This document shows, one piece after another, positions 1,260 through 39,002 of a stretch of DNA of 39,579 nucleotides. The DNA is taken from UHGV virus genome UHGV-0251828. One strand, 5' to 3'. Below the pieces are notes generated by a model. That model ran no database searches, was not told the DNA's origin, and saw nothing but the letters and a program-made list of their open reading frames with translations. A program made the position numbers and the translations under genes. Position 1 is the first letter of the stretch. Each line of letters opens with the position of its first letter. This DNA comes from a virus.

Positions 1260-1271
1260 GTGACATGTCAC
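1260..1271. repeat. perfect 12-bp palindrome GTGACATGTCAC, copy 1 of 3
   Basis: Exact match; contains the stop codon of the 1268..1564 gene; abuts the terminator hairpin. Confidence 0.8.
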
Positions 1272-14840: not shown

Positions 14841-15536
14841 TTATTTGCCATAGAGCACTTCGGCCGCACTACGCTGGCCTTCATTACCACCGGTGACCAT
14901 GCCATCTTCAGACATCGCCTTTCCGATTTTCACGAACGTTTTGACCAGATCAGGGTGATTACCCAGCCCGGTGGTGTTCAGATATTCTTTGAGTTCAGGT
15001 GTCCCGAACTGGTCAAGCGCATGCTGTGCGGCGCTAAGGTTAGAAATCAACTTGTCGCCACCGATTTCTTTGTCAGCTTTTACATCCGCAGCCCACTGCT
15101 CGGTTGTTTTCTGCCAGGCTTCTGCCTGGCGCTGCTGAACACCTGCCAGAATCTTCGGATAAGCATCAACCAGCTTTTGCGCTTGCTCGTTGGTCAGGTT
15201 AAGTTCTCGCGCCACCGGCTCGAATTCCTTCAACGCTTCTGTATCCAGCTCTACGCCTTCGGCAGCCTGAAACTCGTACTTCTCAGGCGCACCCTCTGGT
15301 TTATCGCCGTCCTTTTTTTCATCCTGCTTATCGTTTTCAGGCTTTTTGTCATCAGCAGGTTTATCGCCATCAGCAACAGGTTGTGGCTTATCACCTTCCT
15401 GTTGTGATGGATCACCAACTGGAGCAGGGTTATCACCTGCAGGCGCTGACGGTTCTGACGCAGCCGGAGCTGCTCCACCATCGACTGGTTGCTCATTGCA
15501 AAGACGGCTATACAGCAAACGCTCAAATAAATTCAT
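14841..15536 (-). CDS. scaffolding protein
   Basis: Acidic, low-complexity, Pro/Asp/Lys-rich; ATG at 15536 with AGGAG SD. Confidence 0.7.
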   Translation of the reverse strand: MNLFERLLYSRLCNEQPVDGGAAPAASEPSAPAGDNPAPVGDPSQQEGDKPQPVADGDKPADDKKPENDKQDEKKDGDKPEGAPEKYEFQAAEGVELDTEALKEFEPVARELNLTNEQAQKLVDAYPKILAGVQQRQAEAWQKTTEQWAADVKADKEIGGDKLISNLSAAQHALDQFGTPELKEYLNTTGLGNHPDLVKTFVKIGKAMSEDGMVTGGNEGQRSAAEVLYGK

Positions 15537-18159: not shown

Positions 18160-18236
18160 GTGGCATTAGCTCAGTTGGACAGAGCAACCGCCTTCTAAGC
18201 GGTTGGTCGCAGGTTCGAATCCTGCATGCCACGCCA
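18160..18236 (+). tRNA. tRNA-Arg (anticodon TCT)
   Basis: Hand-folded cloverleaf: 7-bp acceptor GTGGCAT/ATGCCAC, D-stem GCTC/GAGC, anticodon stem ACCGC/GCGGT with loop CTTCTAA, T-stem GCAGG/CCTGC, T-loop TTCGAAT, encoded CCA. Confidence 0.9.
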
Positions 18237-18434: not shown

Positions 18435-18806
18435 ATGAACGACCAGCAAATCGAAAAAGAAATCGTTGAGAAAGGCAAAACTGCTCCGCGCGTTACGCCA
18501 GACCATATCGAAAGCATTATTGCTCAGGAGGCATATTTCACAGCAGAGGATGGTGCCTTTGGCAAAGCCATAAAAGCGAAACATACTGGCGGATATGTAA
18601 ACTACCAGCCGCACGAATCACTTTCTATGCTGACGTTCTGCGTCCTGGTGCTGCGCAACGGCTTCACCGTCACCGGAGAGAGCGCCTGTGCAAGCCCGGA
18701 AAACTTTGATGCAGAAATTGGTCGGAAGATTGCCCGGCAGAATGCTGTAAACAAAATCTGGATGCTTGAAGGTTACTTGCTGAAGCAGAAGTTAAGCGAG
18801 CAATAA
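18435..18806 (+). CDS. accessory protein of the phage Gp49/Sf6-gp66-like family (123 aa; from memory)
   Basis: Track ORF; AAGGTGA SD 6 nt upstream; opposite strand to flanking packaging genes. Confidence 0.65.
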   Translation: MNDQQIEKEIVEKGKTAPRVTPDHIESIIAQEAYFTAEDGAFGKAIKAKHTGGYVNYQPHESLSMLTFCVLVLRNGFTVTGESACASPENFDAEIGRKIARQNAVNKIWMLEGYLLKQKLSEQ

Positions 18807-18810
18807 CACC

Positions 18811-18822
18811 GTGACATGTCAC
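18811..18822. repeat. perfect 12-bp palindrome GTGACATGTCAC, copy 2 of 3
   Basis: Exact match, 5 nt after the Gp49-like stop and 4 nt before a terminator hairpin. Confidence 0.8.
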
Positions 18823-18826
18823 AAAC

Positions 18827-18854
18827 AGCCAGCCTATGAGCTGGCTTTGTTTTA
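18827..18854 (+). terminator. intrinsic terminator of the tRNA/Gp49-like island
   Basis: AGCCAGC-CTATGA-GCTGGCT hairpin followed by TTGTTTTA. Confidence 0.65.
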
Positions 18855-18896: not shown

Positions 18897-20372
18897 TTAA
18901 GCATAGGGATCGTAATCTGTAATGGCCTTTCCTTGCTGGTTCTGCTGACCTAGAATTCGCAGACGCTTCGACACAGGGAACGCAAACGTCAGCAGTAGCG
19001 CATCGCCTTTACCAGGAGAACGCCCAAGCCGCTCCTTGATATCTTCCTTCGGTTCGATAACGATTTTACCGTCCACTCGAACTTTGTACTCTGCCGCAGA
19101 CAGGTCGTCCGCTGTTTCCTGGTCATCCAGCATGCCGCCCAGCCTCAGCCATGTCTTGCATGAGTTGAACATCTCCCCACGCTTGTTGAGCATCTGCGGG
19201 TCAGTAGACGCGCCACCGAACGGAACAAGTTGCCATGTACGACCCCAGCCATCACCGATTGACTTCAGACCAGTTCCGTAACCGAAGTCGATGAACACTG
19301 CGTCAGCCTGGTACTGGTCTTCAAAGTCAGCGATACGCTTCGCCATAATCAGATCGTCAGTGGTCTTGTTGCCAGTCCACAGCACCTTACTGTGCAGCCC
19401 CTGCCGCAGGTATATCACAGCGTCATCAACGCCGGAGTATGCCGGGTCAACGCCGATTATCACCGGAGCATGTGCAACCTGCGCAGCGGTTACCACCCGT
19501 TTCATTGCCTCGTCAGTAAGGCCGGTAGGGATAAACTGCAATTCAGATGCATCAGGAAATATGCCGCGCACACGGATTTTAACGAAGTCGCTGTCTTCCC
19601 CGTAGTCATCAACCCATTTCTGCAACTGCTGTTTGTTAGTACCTTCCACCGTCCGGCTGTCAATCTGCGCAGTTTTCCAGCGGTGTTTGTATTTGCGGAA
19701 ACATTCGCGAAAACGCCCGGTATTACGTGTAGGGTTTCCGAACGCCACCCAGATAATCTCAGTGTCTTCGTCCGTTAGCGCACCCTCGGCAACTTCCCAC
19801 ACCAGATCCGCAATGTTCGACGCTTCATCGAATACCACAATGATGCGTTTGCGCTCGTTGTGTAGTCCGGCGAATGCCTCAGTGTTGTGCTCAGACCAGG
19901 GGATTGCGTCAGCTCGCCACCGCTTGTCGTGTCCAGGATCATTGCTGTACATCGCGGTAGCGGTACAGGTAAACCAGTCTTTCGTGATAGCAAGGTTCGA
20001 CCACTTGATAATTTCCGGCCAGGTCTTCGTTCGTAGCTGGTTGTCGGTGTTGGCGGTCACCACAACCTTACAATCCTCGCAAGTGGACATGCCCCAGTTG
20101 ATCAGCATTGAGATGAATGCGGATTTACCAATACCGTGACCCGAAGCACGTGCCAGCATAAGCGGCTGATAGCGAGTCTCTGGATTCTGCAGGTGATCAC
20201 GTATCTCTCGGAACGCATCAGCCTGCCACTGACGTGGACCGGTGGCATGTGCCAGTTCAGTCCCATCTTCCCCCCACGGGAACGCATAGAGGGCATAGCC
20301 AAGCGGATCGTGAGTGAACCCTGCAATATCCTCGATCAACTGCTCTTCAGGAGATAACGCTGCATCTGTCAC
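18897..20372 (-). CDS. terL: terminase large subunit
   Basis: 491-aa track ORF; GTG start overlapping terS stop (GTGA); AGGATGG SD. Confidence 0.85.
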   Translation of the reverse strand: MTDAALSPEEQLIEDIAGFTHDPLGYALYAFPWGEDGTELAHATGPRQWQADAFREIRDHLQNPETRYQPLMLARASGHGIGKSAFISMLINWGMSTCEDCKVVVTANTDNQLRTKTWPEIIKWSNLAITKDWFTCTATAMYSNDPGHDKRWRADAIPWSEHNTEAFAGLHNERKRIIVVFDEASNIADLVWEVAEGALTDEDTEIIWVAFGNPTRNTGRFRECFRKYKHRWKTAQIDSRTVEGTNKQQLQKWVDDYGEDSDFVKIRVRGIFPDASELQFIPTGLTDEAMKRVVTAAQVAHAPVIIGVDPAYSGVDDAVIYLRQGLHSKVLWTGNKTTDDLIMAKRIADFEDQYQADAVFIDFGYGTGLKSIGDGWGRTWQLVPFGGASTDPQMLNKRGEMFNSCKTWLRLGGMLDDQETADDLSAAEYKVRVDGKIVIEPKEDIKERLGRSPGKGDALLLTFAFPVSKRLRILGQQNQQGKAITDYDPYA

Positions 20373-20962
20373 TGATTGCCATCCTGACGTTCTTTCAGTC
20401 TCTTCCTGGCTGCCGCTATGCGATCAGCAATTGTCACATTCACATTAACATCCAGGCGTTCTTTGAATGCATTGACATCGACGTGCTTACCAATCAGCTC
20501 AAGGTTCTTCACCTTGTCAGGCCATTTAATTTTTTTGAGGATTGTCTCTATCGAATCCTCGTTCATGTTCATGATGGTCGATGACAGATCAAAGCCGCTA
20601 AGCGTAGTGCGCCAGATTTTCGGCCACTCGCGGATTGGCTTAAGGCCCCCATCATCGTTGAGGATATCAATCACGTCCATCTGGTCGATCTCCACCAGGC
20701 GCATGAGAACGTAATCAGCACTGACACGCATTCGTTTGTTGCGCTCTTCCATCAGCTCGGCAATCCGTTTTTGAATGCGTTCATCGCGCATCATGACACT
20801 GGCTTTAACTGCCGCTGTATTTGGGGAGAATCCTGCGTTAATCGCTGCCTGAGTCTGGTTTTCAGGCGTTTTGATGTATGACTGGCAATAAGCCTCCTGC
20901 ATTGCTGTTAGTGGCTTAAATTGCGTTGATTTACGTTTATAGGTTTTAGGTTCAGCAGGCAT
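20369..20962 (-). CDS. terS: terminase small subunit (~197 aa)
   Basis: Track ORF 20369..21043 trimmed to ATG 20962 (GGTGG SD); the TTG-start extension would cover the upstream terminator. Confidence 0.65.
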   Translation of the reverse strand: MPAEPKTYKRKSTQFKPLTAMQEAYCQSYIKTPENQTQAAINAGFSPNTAAVKASVMMRDERIQKRIAELMEERNKRMRVSADYVLMRLVEIDQMDVIDILNDDGGLKPIREWPKIWRTTLSGFDLSSTIMNMNEDSIETILKKIKWPDKVKNLELIGKHVDVNAFKERLDVNVNVTIADRIAAARKRLKERQDGNQ

Positions 20963-21008
20963 CGTAACCACCGTGGTAATAGTTACCGTTGTGGTAATAG
21001 TACCATGC

Positions 21009-21034
21009 AAAATAAAGCCGCCATAGTTGGCGGC
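21009..21034 (-). terminator. intrinsic terminator between early region and terS (tR'-like position)
   Basis: GCCGCC-ATAGTT-GGCGGC hairpin followed on minus strand by TTTATTTT. Confidence 0.6.
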
Positions 21035-21075
21035 AGTATTCAAAACACATCAAATTCATCATGCATAATCTACTC

Positions 21076-21087
21076 GTGACATGTCAC
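21076..21087. repeat. perfect 12-bp palindrome GTGACATGTCAC, copy 3 of 3
   Basis: Exact match; contains the stop codon of the 21084..21422 gene; ~40 nt 5' of the terminator on the transcribed strand. Confidence 0.8.
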
Positions 21088-21422
21088 ACTATTAATTTCG
21101 TTTCATGCCAGCCTTTGGTCACCCAACATTGCGAGTCACCATTGCACGGGCATGAATTAACTGGAACTCTCTCGCCGCACTTACCGCAACGTTTTCTGCT
21201 GATCGATTTTATACGCCCGCGCACGCGTACATCATCCTGGCGGATCAGTAACGCTATATACTCACCAAATTCGTAAGGCGCACGCCCGGGGCGACGCGCG
21301 GCACAGTTACGCTCAAGCATTTCAATTTCCTGAGCATCAAGCACAATCTCCAGCTTACGCACACCAGATGCAGCTTGTCTGGCTCTCTGAGCGGCTTTGC
21401 GCTCTGCTGCTGATTTAGCCAT
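21084..21422 (-). CDS. Arg-rich N-terminus plus Cys-rich C-terminus protein (112 aa); candidate late-gene regulator
   Basis: Track ORF; AGGAAA SD; N-term AAERKAAQRARQAASG, C-term CGKCGERVPVNSCPCNGDSQC; last gene before terminator and terS. Confidence 0.6.
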   Translation of the reverse strand: MAKSAAERKAAQRARQAASGVRKLEIVLDAQEIEMLERNCAARRPGRAPYEFGEYIALLIRQDDVRVRGRIKSISRKRCGKCGERVPVNSCPCNGDSQCWVTKGWHETKLIV

Positions 21423-23105: not shown

Positions 23106-23278
23106 CGCACTGCGTACCCCTTCTCTCGTCTGTTACGCGACGCGGTGGGTTTATAGTTAAATGCGAATACCACCCTACCAAACATGCCGATCACCGCCCG
23201 TTTGTGATTGCTGATTGGTAGCTTCTCGTACCCCGTCGAACGCGATAAAAGAAGTAATTTTGCTTTACGGTTTTTCAT
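23102..23278 (-). CDS. small basic hypothetical protein (58 aa), paralogous N-terminus MKNRKAK
   Basis: Hand-translated; AGGAGA SD 8 nt upstream; ATGA overlap with next ORF. Confidence 0.3.
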   Translation of the reverse strand: MKNRKAKLLLLSRSTGYEKLPISNHKRAVIGMFGRVVFAFNYKPTASRNRREKGYAVR

Positions 23279-23450
23279 CGTTTTGCTCTCCTGCGTCTCT
23301 TTGCTGCTCGTCGTGCCGCTGCAATACCGGTATGGCGGCGCTTTGGTGCCGGGATGATGTTGTCAGTCATCAGGACATGTGGCTTTGCAATTAGCGCAGA
23401 AGCCCAAAAACGAGTCGGGTACGGTAACAAGCCGATACATGCCACACGCA

Positions 23451-23990
23451 CTACTCACCTCCGTTGATGCGAATGCCAGCGGCGCGTAATGCGTGTTCTA
23501 GGTCAATCAGGTAAAGCCAACTGCCATTTTCTTTAGGTATCATGACATGTCGCTCATCTGCATTTATCGGGTGTCCATATCGAAGGTCGTAGCGAGTCGG
23601 TAATTGAACTTCCCGTGCTTCCAGTTCTGCTATGCGCTTACTTCCATCCGCGATTACTCCCTCGTAATATTCACGCTGCTCGTTGAGTTTTGATTTTGCT
23701 GCTTCAAGCTCAACGCGCAGCTTCCCTACCGTTAGCGCAATATCCTCGTTCTCCTGGTCGCGGCGTTTGATGTATTGCTGGTTCCTTTCCCGTTCATCCA
23801 GTAGTGCCAGCACGGTTTCTGGTCCGGCCAGAAATTTGAAGGCGTTGAGCGCATCAATATCCACACCGTAATCTTTAAGTTCCTGTTCACTTAACAAATC
23901 ATCATCAGCTGGCAACATTAACAGGCGTTCCATTGCTGGAATTGCACGTTCCGCCGCCTCACGCAGTGCCTGATAGTCAATTTCGCTCAC
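23451..23990 (-). CDS. coiled-coil nin-region protein (Ead/Ea22-like by composition)
   Basis: 179-aa track ORF; GTG start in GTGA overlap with AGGAGG SD. Confidence 0.55.
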   Translation of the reverse strand: MSEIDYQALREAAERAIPAMERLLMLPADDDLLSEQELKDYGVDIDALNAFKFLAGPETVLALLDERERNQQYIKRRDQENEDIALTVGKLRVELEAAKSKLNEQREYYEGVIADGSKRIAELEAREVQLPTRYDLRYGHPINADERHVMIPKENGSWLYLIDLEHALRAAGIRINGGE

Positions 23991-38733: not shown

Positions 38734-38823
38734 ATTTACATAGCACTCCTCTTGTGCCATAGTAATCGGGCACTGGCAAAATCCAGTGCCGGGATTGGCG
38801 TCCCGAGTTACTAAGTGGCGCAT

Positions 38824-38847
38824 ACCACGCCAGACGTGGTTTTTTTA
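38824..38847 (+). terminator. intrinsic terminator-like hairpin in the leader of the Bro-N gene
   Basis: CCACG-CCAGA-CGTGG hairpin followed by TTTTTTT. Confidence 0.5.
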
Positions 38848-39002
38848 TGCGTTAAGCACAGCTATATCCGAATTATGGTGGGCTGGGCAGGGGTCCGAAA
38901 GGACGCCGGTACCACTTAGGCCGGTACGCCAACCTTGTCCAGTTCACCACCAGTAATTGGCGTTGCGGTGGTGATTAAAATCACTAAGTGGAGATAACCA
39001 CC

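Follow-up and report, generated by a model that had tools for sequence, protein, structure and literature searches.

A predicted ribbon-helix-helix/zinc-knuckle protein of epsilon15-type phages and the strictly spaced palindrome found at its stop codon and at other transcription-unit boundaries

A close described counterpart of the locus presented here is the late switch of phage lambda, in which the regulator Q is the last early gene and is followed immediately by a DNA site, then by the terminator tR' and the late genes. The same order is found in the UHGV virus genome UHGV-0251828, a stretch of 39,579 nucleotides (hereafter the window), where a gene for a 112-amino-acid (aa) protein ends within a perfect 12-bp palindrome and is followed by a terminator and the terminase gene terS. 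Further described proteins share features with its product. Lambda N, P22 N and HK022 Nun are small basic phage proteins with an arginine-rich N-terminal segment, and Nun binds zinc at its C-terminus. Most characterised proteins with the ribbon-helix-helix (RHH) fold are repressors, and RHH proteins such as the omega repressor bind inverted 7-bp units. MatP, an RHH protein with a basic helix ahead of its beta-strand, is the binder of the matS sites. The E. coli matS consensus is the 13-bp sequence GTGAC[AG]N[TC]GTCAC, i.e., two half-sites separated by a spacer of 3 bp (PMC3603311, PMC8669397).

We consider it probable that the 112-aa product is a site-specific RHH/zinc DNA-binding protein, and that it targets a strictly spaced palindrome located both on the stop codon of its own gene and at further boundaries of transcription units. 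The motif is paired with the protein family across unrelated phages, from which we infer that this protein is the binder of the motif. Possibly, it acts at these boundaries as a regulator of the early-to-late switch.

A palindrome of fixed spacing and its companion gene

The palindrome GTGACATGTCAC is present in three exact copies in the window (Table 1), as compared with about 0.002 expected occurrences of an exact 12-mer in 39.6 kb, and it is the sole perfect palindrome of at least 10 bp that is repeated there. The stop codon of the 112-aa gene does lie inside copy 3, as had been proposed in the initial annotation, and this copy is the putative primary operator of the protein. The identical 12-mer is found at all three homologous places in epsilon15, with the equivalents of copies 1 and 2 at 19517 and 2142, and all three palindromes are intact in SPN1S, where the corresponding positions are 19662 and 2174. 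Each of the three copies forms the left border of a region that is variable among relatives.

The motif was then scanned for in 75 further IMG/VR loci around family genes (1.32 Mb), with single distant members used as queries for the loci of remote relatives. The exact sequence GTGAC-N2-GTCAC was found 122 times versus 1.26 expected, and the same half-sites with spacers of 0, 1, 3, 4, 5 and 6 bp, which serve as an internal control, were found zero times. Lambda, which is without the family gene, has no N2 site. Relative to the stop codon of the family gene, the motif starts 1 nt ahead in most of the 75 loci and 4-5 nt behind in others. Three copies are found in phage N15, where one includes the gene 46 TGA, and two in Vibrio phage VPHZ6, where one begins 1 nt after the stop codon. 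Vibrio phage K303 also has three, and one of these directly precedes the ribosome-binding site of terS. An Aeromonas phage carries four copies of the variant GTGACCGGACAC, and in a P2-like Yersinia phage an exact copy and a near copy lie at a distance of 33 bp. The motif has the same arrangement in another phage type (L174), and it is also present in loci L094-96.

The central dinucleotide is uniform within the genome in N15, VPHZ6, the Aeromonas phage and the epsilon15-type phages, and it differs between phages of the same host, being AT in the E. coli phage of the window and TG/CA in N15. This suggests a phage-encoded reader rather than a host factor. The operators of CRP, FNR, LexA and LacI-type host regulators probably do not match the palindrome, from which they would differ in spacing or half-sites. 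A second motif variant accompanies the main one in K303 and in two further loci (L168 and L097). Beside its three N2 sites, K303 also has a single genuine matS-type site with a spacer of 3 bp, GTGACACCGTCAC (position 19491 of locus L091), in which the TGA of the preceding gene is embedded and after which there is a hairpin.

As RNA, the palindrome would form a hairpin of 4-5 bp (-2.9 kcal/mol, z = -0.5), no better than shuffled sequences, while the symmetry of the 12-mer extends through its centre. Where centres or flanks are asymmetric, they are found in either orientation with respect to transcription, and all four copies of the Aeromonas variant would contain an A-A mismatch breaking the pairing. 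Together with the predicted RHH fold, these features favour recognition as double-stranded DNA. The 14-mer of copy 3 can be read as TGTGACA-TGTCACG, i.e., two inverted 7-bp units by analogy with the omega operator. An RNA reading of the palindrome was rejected, since the hairpin is marginal and the only Rfam match, rseX-like and covering 21010-21095, is sub-threshold (29 bits against a threshold of 50, E = 0.17).

Predicted fold of the 112-aa protein

A 112-aa product with an arginine-rich N-terminus had been reported from this locus, and the minus-strand sequence bears this out and places the product in a conserved family. The profile of PHROG 536 ('transcriptional regulator') matches it over its full length (residues 1-111, E = 5.2e-54). 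The epsilon15 protein is 77% identical to it and the product of N15 gene 46 is 35% identical (tblastn), and the epsilon15 record itself mentions the similarity of gp49 to N15 gp46. A word-indexed search gave 749 homologues. The family is nevertheless small, because an exhaustive HMMER scan of 1.84 billion representatives yielded only 150 clusters. Searches of Pfam, NCBIfam and PDB sequences with the single protein gave no significant match, and no functional study of the protein was found in the literature on epsilon15, phiV10 and N15 gp46. Several longer or fused family members (P0244, P0121 and others) appear to be artefacts of gene calling in which neighbouring genes were joined, and they were uninformative about function.

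The basic residues at the N-terminus are K3, R8, K9, R13, R15, R22 and K23. Among 54 close homologues, C79, C82, C91 and C93 are invariant and C99 is nearly so. Among 56 diverse members, C79 and C82 are invariant, and C99, P87, G95, R8, R13, E54 and L59 are nearly invariant, with a fourth cysteine usually located around position 91 in the wider family. The conserved C-x2-C ... C ... C cluster and the P-Y-x3-E-Y motif are both present in the 112-aa protein. The cysteine-rich C-terminus noticed in the initial annotation is thus conserved, whereas its label of zinc ribbon is better replaced by that of a predicted Cys4 zinc knuckle.

An AlphaFold model made from the 54 close homologues was poor, with a predicted local distance difference test (pLDDT) score of 67 and meaningless Foldseek matches, and the model made from the 56 diverse members reached a pLDDT of 89.9. 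The latter consists of a helix (5-19), an extended segment (20-29), two helices (30-42 and 52-75), a cysteine-rich loop and a last helix (100-108), and the order of beta-strand, helix and helix typical of the RHH (CopG/Arc/MetJ) superfamily is present in it. The protein is predicted to comprise an N-terminal basic helix, an RHH dimerisation and DNA-reading core, a long helix and the Cys4 zinc knuckle. Since residues 5-19 are helical and residues 20-29 extended in the model, the arginine-rich N-terminus would be a basic helix entering the RHH beta-strand and not a free RNA-binding peptide. Curated RHH models gave weak matches only (RHH_5 in 2/56 members and RepB-RCR_reg in 2/56), and the match to the NCBIfam model of a LexA-regulated protein was also weak (E = 0.045). 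The co-occurrence of the palindrome with the family suggests that a dimer binds a symmetric double-stranded DNA operator.

The predicted fold and the short symmetric operator are shared with the RHH repressors Arc, Mnt, CopG, omega and ParG. Unlike these, the phage protein is predicted to be extended by a conserved Cys4 zinc knuckle and a helix at the C-terminus, its putative primary operator is on its own stop codon and not at a promoter, and its sites are at the 3' ends of transcription units. TraR and YbiI, whose DksA-type zinc finger binds in the secondary channel of RNA polymerase, account for the top three PDB profile matches (E = 0.05-0.18, hhalign 41%). They have in common with the phage protein a long helix, a C-x2-C-G-x2-[IL]-P ... 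C zinc finger and a short C-terminal helix, but the fourth zinc ligand is located elsewhere and the long helix of the phage protein belongs to the RHH core. Because Pfam does not confirm the resemblance, with no DksA/TraR match at E up to 10, we regard it as a weak lead only. Membership of the DksA/TraR C4 family itself was rejected, as the curated model of its C-x2-C-N17-C-x2-C finger does not recognise the protein.

The basic helix is not preserved throughout the family. In SPN1S (L176, 1429-1737) and its clade, i.e., SPN9TCW, SPC32H/N and SPNIS2, the protein begins MATTTTRRQNLLELELVLD... and another sequence stands in place of the helix, it seems through recombination with a fragment of an upstream gene. 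Since this viable clade kept all three sites, the helix is not an indispensable element.

Transcription-unit boundaries and the late genes

The window is an essentially complete genome of an epsilon15/phiV10-type (Uetakevirus) temperate podophage, with most genes on the minus strand. The early-right operon, which holds cro, replication genes and nin-like accessory genes (NinX and DUF551), ends with the gene for the 112-aa protein, and terS and then terL lie directly downstream, with the gene's own site and the terminator in between. The succession of terminator and terS recognized in the initial annotation is therefore retained. The gene is present in 34/34 phage records having an epsilon15-type terL at ≥78% identity, unlike its nin-like neighbours, which vary among the relatives. 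A family gene also closes the early region, just before the lysis or packaging genes, in five other phage types, with the Vibrio, Aeromonas, L174-type and L098-type phages among them. In the different phage type represented by L098 (sites at 15501 and 16115), L109, L117, L127 and L131, palindromes are placed on both sides of a 190-aa family gene, between the protease-like and major capsid genes, and 4 nt past the second palindrome there is a strong terminator, with the capsid gene just behind it.

Table 1. Positions of the 112-aa gene, the palindrome copies and the neighbouring elements in the window
Feature	Coordinates	Strand	Remark
Gene for the 112-aa protein with predicted RHH fold and Cys4 zinc knuckle (PHROG 536; epsilon15 gp49 / phiV10 p55 / N15 gp46 family)	21084..21422, stop included	-	product begins MAKSAAERKAAQRARQAASGVRK...
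Palindrome copy 3, GTGACATGTCAC	21076..21087		within the 14-mer TGTGACATGTCACG (21075-21088); contains the gene's TGA (21084-21086)
Mini-ORF (open reading frame) of 8 codons, MHDEFDVF	21040..21066	-	between palindrome and terminator
Intrinsic terminator	21009..21034	-	stem 21034-21017 (GCCGCC-AACTAT-GGCGGC, 6-nt loop), then TTTATTTT (21016-21009); starts 41 nt past copy 3
Two overlapping repressor-type operators (ATTACC-N5-GGTAAT family)	20964..20998		between terminator and terS
terS, small terminase subunit	20369..20962	-	first late gene; Pfam Terminase_2, E = 2.5e-29; ATG at 20962 by the start annotated in relatives
Bidirectional terminator hairpin	18827..18846		4 nt from copy 2
Palindrome copy 2	18811..18822		between terL and the reverse-oriented cassette (tRNA-Arg and phiV10 p03 homologue)
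phiV10 p03 homologue	18435..18806		next to tRNA-Arg
tRNA-Arg (anticodon TCT)	18160..18236	+	
Palindrome copy 1	1260..1271		contains the TGA of the last structural-block gene (1268-1564, -)
Terminator hairpin and T-tract	1258-1243 and 1242-1235	-	begin 1 nt past copy 1

The relatives have terminator hairpins that differ in sequence, several of them with a CCGCC/GGCGG core, 20-23 nt after the own-stop palindrome. A terminator is located within 45 nt of 39/101 unique sites versus 374/2092 ends of long ORFs, i.e., an enrichment of about 2-fold (Fisher p = 3e-6) in a count whose sites are phylogenetically non-independent. The presence of the gene in all 34 records, its position at the end of the early region, the enrichment of terminators, the terminators kept at 20-23 nt and the layout in the L098-type phages argue for a role in the early-to-late transition. 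As no late-gene regulator of epsilon15/phiV10-type phages was found in the records or papers examined, and as the gene is carried by every epsilon15-type record, is the last early gene and has its site by the terminator preceding terS, the 112-aa protein is the obvious candidate.

The spot after the own-stop palindrome is a hot spot for inserted genes. In L112 (10340-10800) and many IMG/VR relatives the palindrome is followed by a consensus-like promoter, TTGACT-17-TACTGT, which overlaps a LexA box, TACTGTTTAAATATACAGTA, and drives a UmuD-like gene inserted before terS, and in another group of relatives an extra gene (MPKIRYDLEDM...) has its ribosome-binding site abutting the palindrome. The mini-ORF of the window is present in close relatives with a 41-nt spacer between palindrome and terminator and is absent in epsilon15 and others with a spacer of 20-23 nt.

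The region between the terminator and terS has its own regulatory elements. The two operators listed in Table 1 are homologous to ones annotated as repressor-binding in the epsilon15 record, and a weak promoter-like sequence, TTGCAT-17-GGTAAC, overlaps them (by eye). The ATTACC-N5-GGTAAT inverted repeat has 16 matches with up to 2 mismatches in the window versus about 3 in shuffled sequences, its positions including 20964-20998, 17822, 38337, 27265, 27977, 28039, 24896, 24958, 206 and 38718. The repeats that separate cI from cro and those that follow cI resemble OR and OL, and others are located just upstream of terS, the portal-side block and the tailspike gene. Because such operators lie at their 5' regions, the late units are apparently under the direct control of the prophage repressor.

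We hypothesize that the protein would be made as the last product of the early-right operon and would occupy the boundary sites, i.e., those on or within 5 nt of its own stop codon, after terL and after the structural block. Each site in the window is beside an intrinsic terminator, and the bound protein could alter the passage of RNA polymerase. In the version that we prefer, transcription of the early operon would continue past the neighbouring terminators and enter the packaging and structural genes, and the outcome would be a local, DNA-tethered late switch in place of lambda Q. This explanation builds on the gene, the fold prediction, the motif, the co-occurrence and the site positions reported above, and in its full form, including control of polymerase passage at the boundary sites, it is a tentative one that may well turn out otherwise. 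The effect on termination, and whether read-through would be promoted or blocked, is speculative, and antitermination as such is neither shown nor excluded.

Several points weigh against this explanation. About 60% of the sites are without a terminator within 45 nt, some sites, e.g., in N15, in the Aeromonas phage, at terS of K303 and in the class B loci, stand directly ahead of a ribosome-binding site, copy 2 comes after its hairpin when read in the late-gene direction, and the relatives with the UmuD-like gene have no terminator between the site and terS. One sub-lineage is without the own-stop site, yet it keeps the protein, the terminator and the other copies, a distant lineage (L170) has no motif at all, and the SPN1S clade does without the basic helix. 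N15 has a Q homologue besides gene 46. Since the late units have repressor-type operators and possibly promoters of their own, read-through is perhaps not needed. Moreover, the motif sequence was not found in any paper in a literature search.

Alternative roles and significance

Some of these points would fit a boundary insulator or plain repressor, in which the RHH protein serves as a roadblock that reinforces the ends of units or silences cassettes and has no positive late role. We regard this as unlikely, although it deserves serious attention. Candidate targets would be the tRNA-Arg/p03 cassette, the antirepressor cassette and the UmuD-like gene. Repression is what most characterised RHH proteins do, and the sites are at the left edge of variable, often reverse-oriented cassettes. 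The order of hairpin and then site at copy 2, and at copy 1 when read in reverse, the operator-bearing 5' region of each late unit, and the site of one group of relatives 6 nt upstream of the -35 element of the LexA-box promoter are also consistent with it. However, conservation in 34/34 epsilon15-type records is more than an accessory insulator would predict, the own-stop site is upstream and not downstream of its terminator, and the positions of sites relative to promoters are variable. The tRNA-Arg/p03 cassette lies between terL and the portal-side genes and ends at copy 2 and the bidirectional terminator.

An architectural protein similar to MatP, which would bridge or compact the phage DNA or handle host complexes of the structural maintenance of chromosomes (SMC) type, i.e., MukBEF or related defence, is improbable in our view. 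The two proteins would share the RHH fold with a basic helix ahead of the beta-strand, and the half-sites GTGAC...GTCAC are identical to those of matS, the phage motif being matS minus one central base. The sites are few, dispersed and intergenic. The hosts named for the family members belong to Enterobacterales, Vibrionales and Aeromonadales, with one Paraglaciecola entry in addition, and MatP occurs in these three orders. The family-gene matches include no Pseudomonas or Acinetobacter phages that carry a related terL. On the other hand, the spacer is 2 bp instead of 3 and is never N3 in the scanned loci, no sequence homology to MatP was detected (hhalign probability 0.4%, nothing by BLASTP), and the 112-residue protein has a zinc-knuckle C-terminus and neither the four-helix bundle nor the coiled coil of MatP. 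The own-stop site and the position before the late genes suit a regulator better. Because of the missing homology and the strictly N2 spacing, MatP is kept as an analogy only. There is a slim chance that the protein is a minimal phage analogue of MatP, reading matS-like sites with a 2-bp spacer and organising or bridging phage DNA or evicting SMC-type complexes. If true, this would explain the matS half-sites, the MatP-bearing host orders and the occurrence of the family in linear-plasmid prophages such as N15.

We give little credence to a strict Q-like antiterminator, for which a late promoter would overlap the palindrome as a Q-binding element, and the protein would load onto RNA polymerase paused a little further on and take it past the terminator, a short terminated transcript being the product when the protein is absent. 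The parallel with lambda Q and tR' drawn in the initial annotation stands as far as the positional order of gene, site, terminator and late genes is concerned, and this order is absent in relatives with an inserted gene. Both proteins have zinc-binding cysteines, predicted ones in the case of the phage protein, and the zinc knuckle weakly resembles the polymerase-binding finger of TraR/YbiI (E = 0.05-0.08). Two promoter-like sequences, TTAATA-17-TAGATT (by eye) and GTGACA-18-CATGAT, would put the palindrome in or at a promoter, and hexamers similar to a -10 element are found just past the site in some relatives, e.g., TATAAT in L105. Nevertheless, membership of the Q families could not be upheld, since there is no relationship in sequence or fold, and the families of lambda, 82 and 21 gave no match in Pfam, PHROG, NCBIfam or PDB sequences. 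The best promoter-like match near the palindrome (9/12) belongs to a kind that is no commoner there than in shuffled sequences, and several close relatives have G instead of the key A at position 2 of TAGATT. Around the palindrome there are several weak alternatives for a sigma-70 promoter, none of them conserved, and no convincing promoter is located in the stretch from the gene to the terminator. As no conserved promoter overlaps the site, the Q/pR'/tR' layout is not demonstrated, and no pause element is demonstrable at the palindrome either. Copies 1 and 2 lie between convergent genes, where a promoter is not expected, many family sites are without a nearby terminator, and the Pfam DksA/TraR family is not matched.

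An N-type antiterminator, whose arginine-rich N-terminus would bind the palindrome as an RNA hairpin in the manner of boxB and modify the polymerase processively, had been suggested by the initial annotation and would accord with the Arg/Ala-rich N-terminus, with a possible RNA stem of 4-5 bp and with a site transcribed within the early operon, but it is very unlikely, as the protein has no homology to N or other proteins of the N/Nun group, its basic segment leads into a predicted RHH fold, which is a fold of double-stranded DNA binders, the site behaves as a symmetric DNA target with a hairpin on par with shuffles, a symmetric centre, mixed orientations and the A-A mismatch conserved in the Aeromonas variant, the SPN1S clade keeps the sites without the arginine-rich helix, and no boxA-like element was noticed.

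Two further ORFs of the window had been likened to the 112-aa protein. The 59-aa ORF at 282-461 (+; phrog_6685) does have an Arg/Ala-rich start, but profile comparison gave no relationship to the 112-aa protein. Its basic stretch is followed by a strand-like segment, VECVKVTM, reminiscent of Arc-like RHH proteins, and it is located just before ORF 409-981 (phrog_1651), in the place that the gene for the Bro-N protein occupies in phiV10. The supposed 31-aa ORF near 23370 proved to be the C-terminal part of a 58-aa ORF (23275-23451), so that its Arg/Ala-rich stretch is C-terminal and not N-terminal. At the other end of the window, Rfam matches at gathering level to isrK and C4 antisense RNA are located at 38770-38846 and 38871-38954 (+), upstream of a plus-strand cassette whose continuation, with ORFs 282-461 and 409-981, is at the start of the window. 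This region and the cassette look like an antirepressor module of the P1/P7 type controlled by antisense RNA.

Phages of the epsilon15/phiV10 type are used as typing and reporter phages for Salmonella and E. coli O157. The pair of protein and site recurs in N15-like, P2-like, Vibrio and Aeromonas phages, was not found described in the literature, and offers a small testable regulon. If the protein is MatP-like, it would link phage biology to the machinery of chromosome organisation. If it modulates terminators from an adjacent DNA site, it would represent a mode of antitermination or insulation distinct from those of N, Q, put RNA and RfaH.

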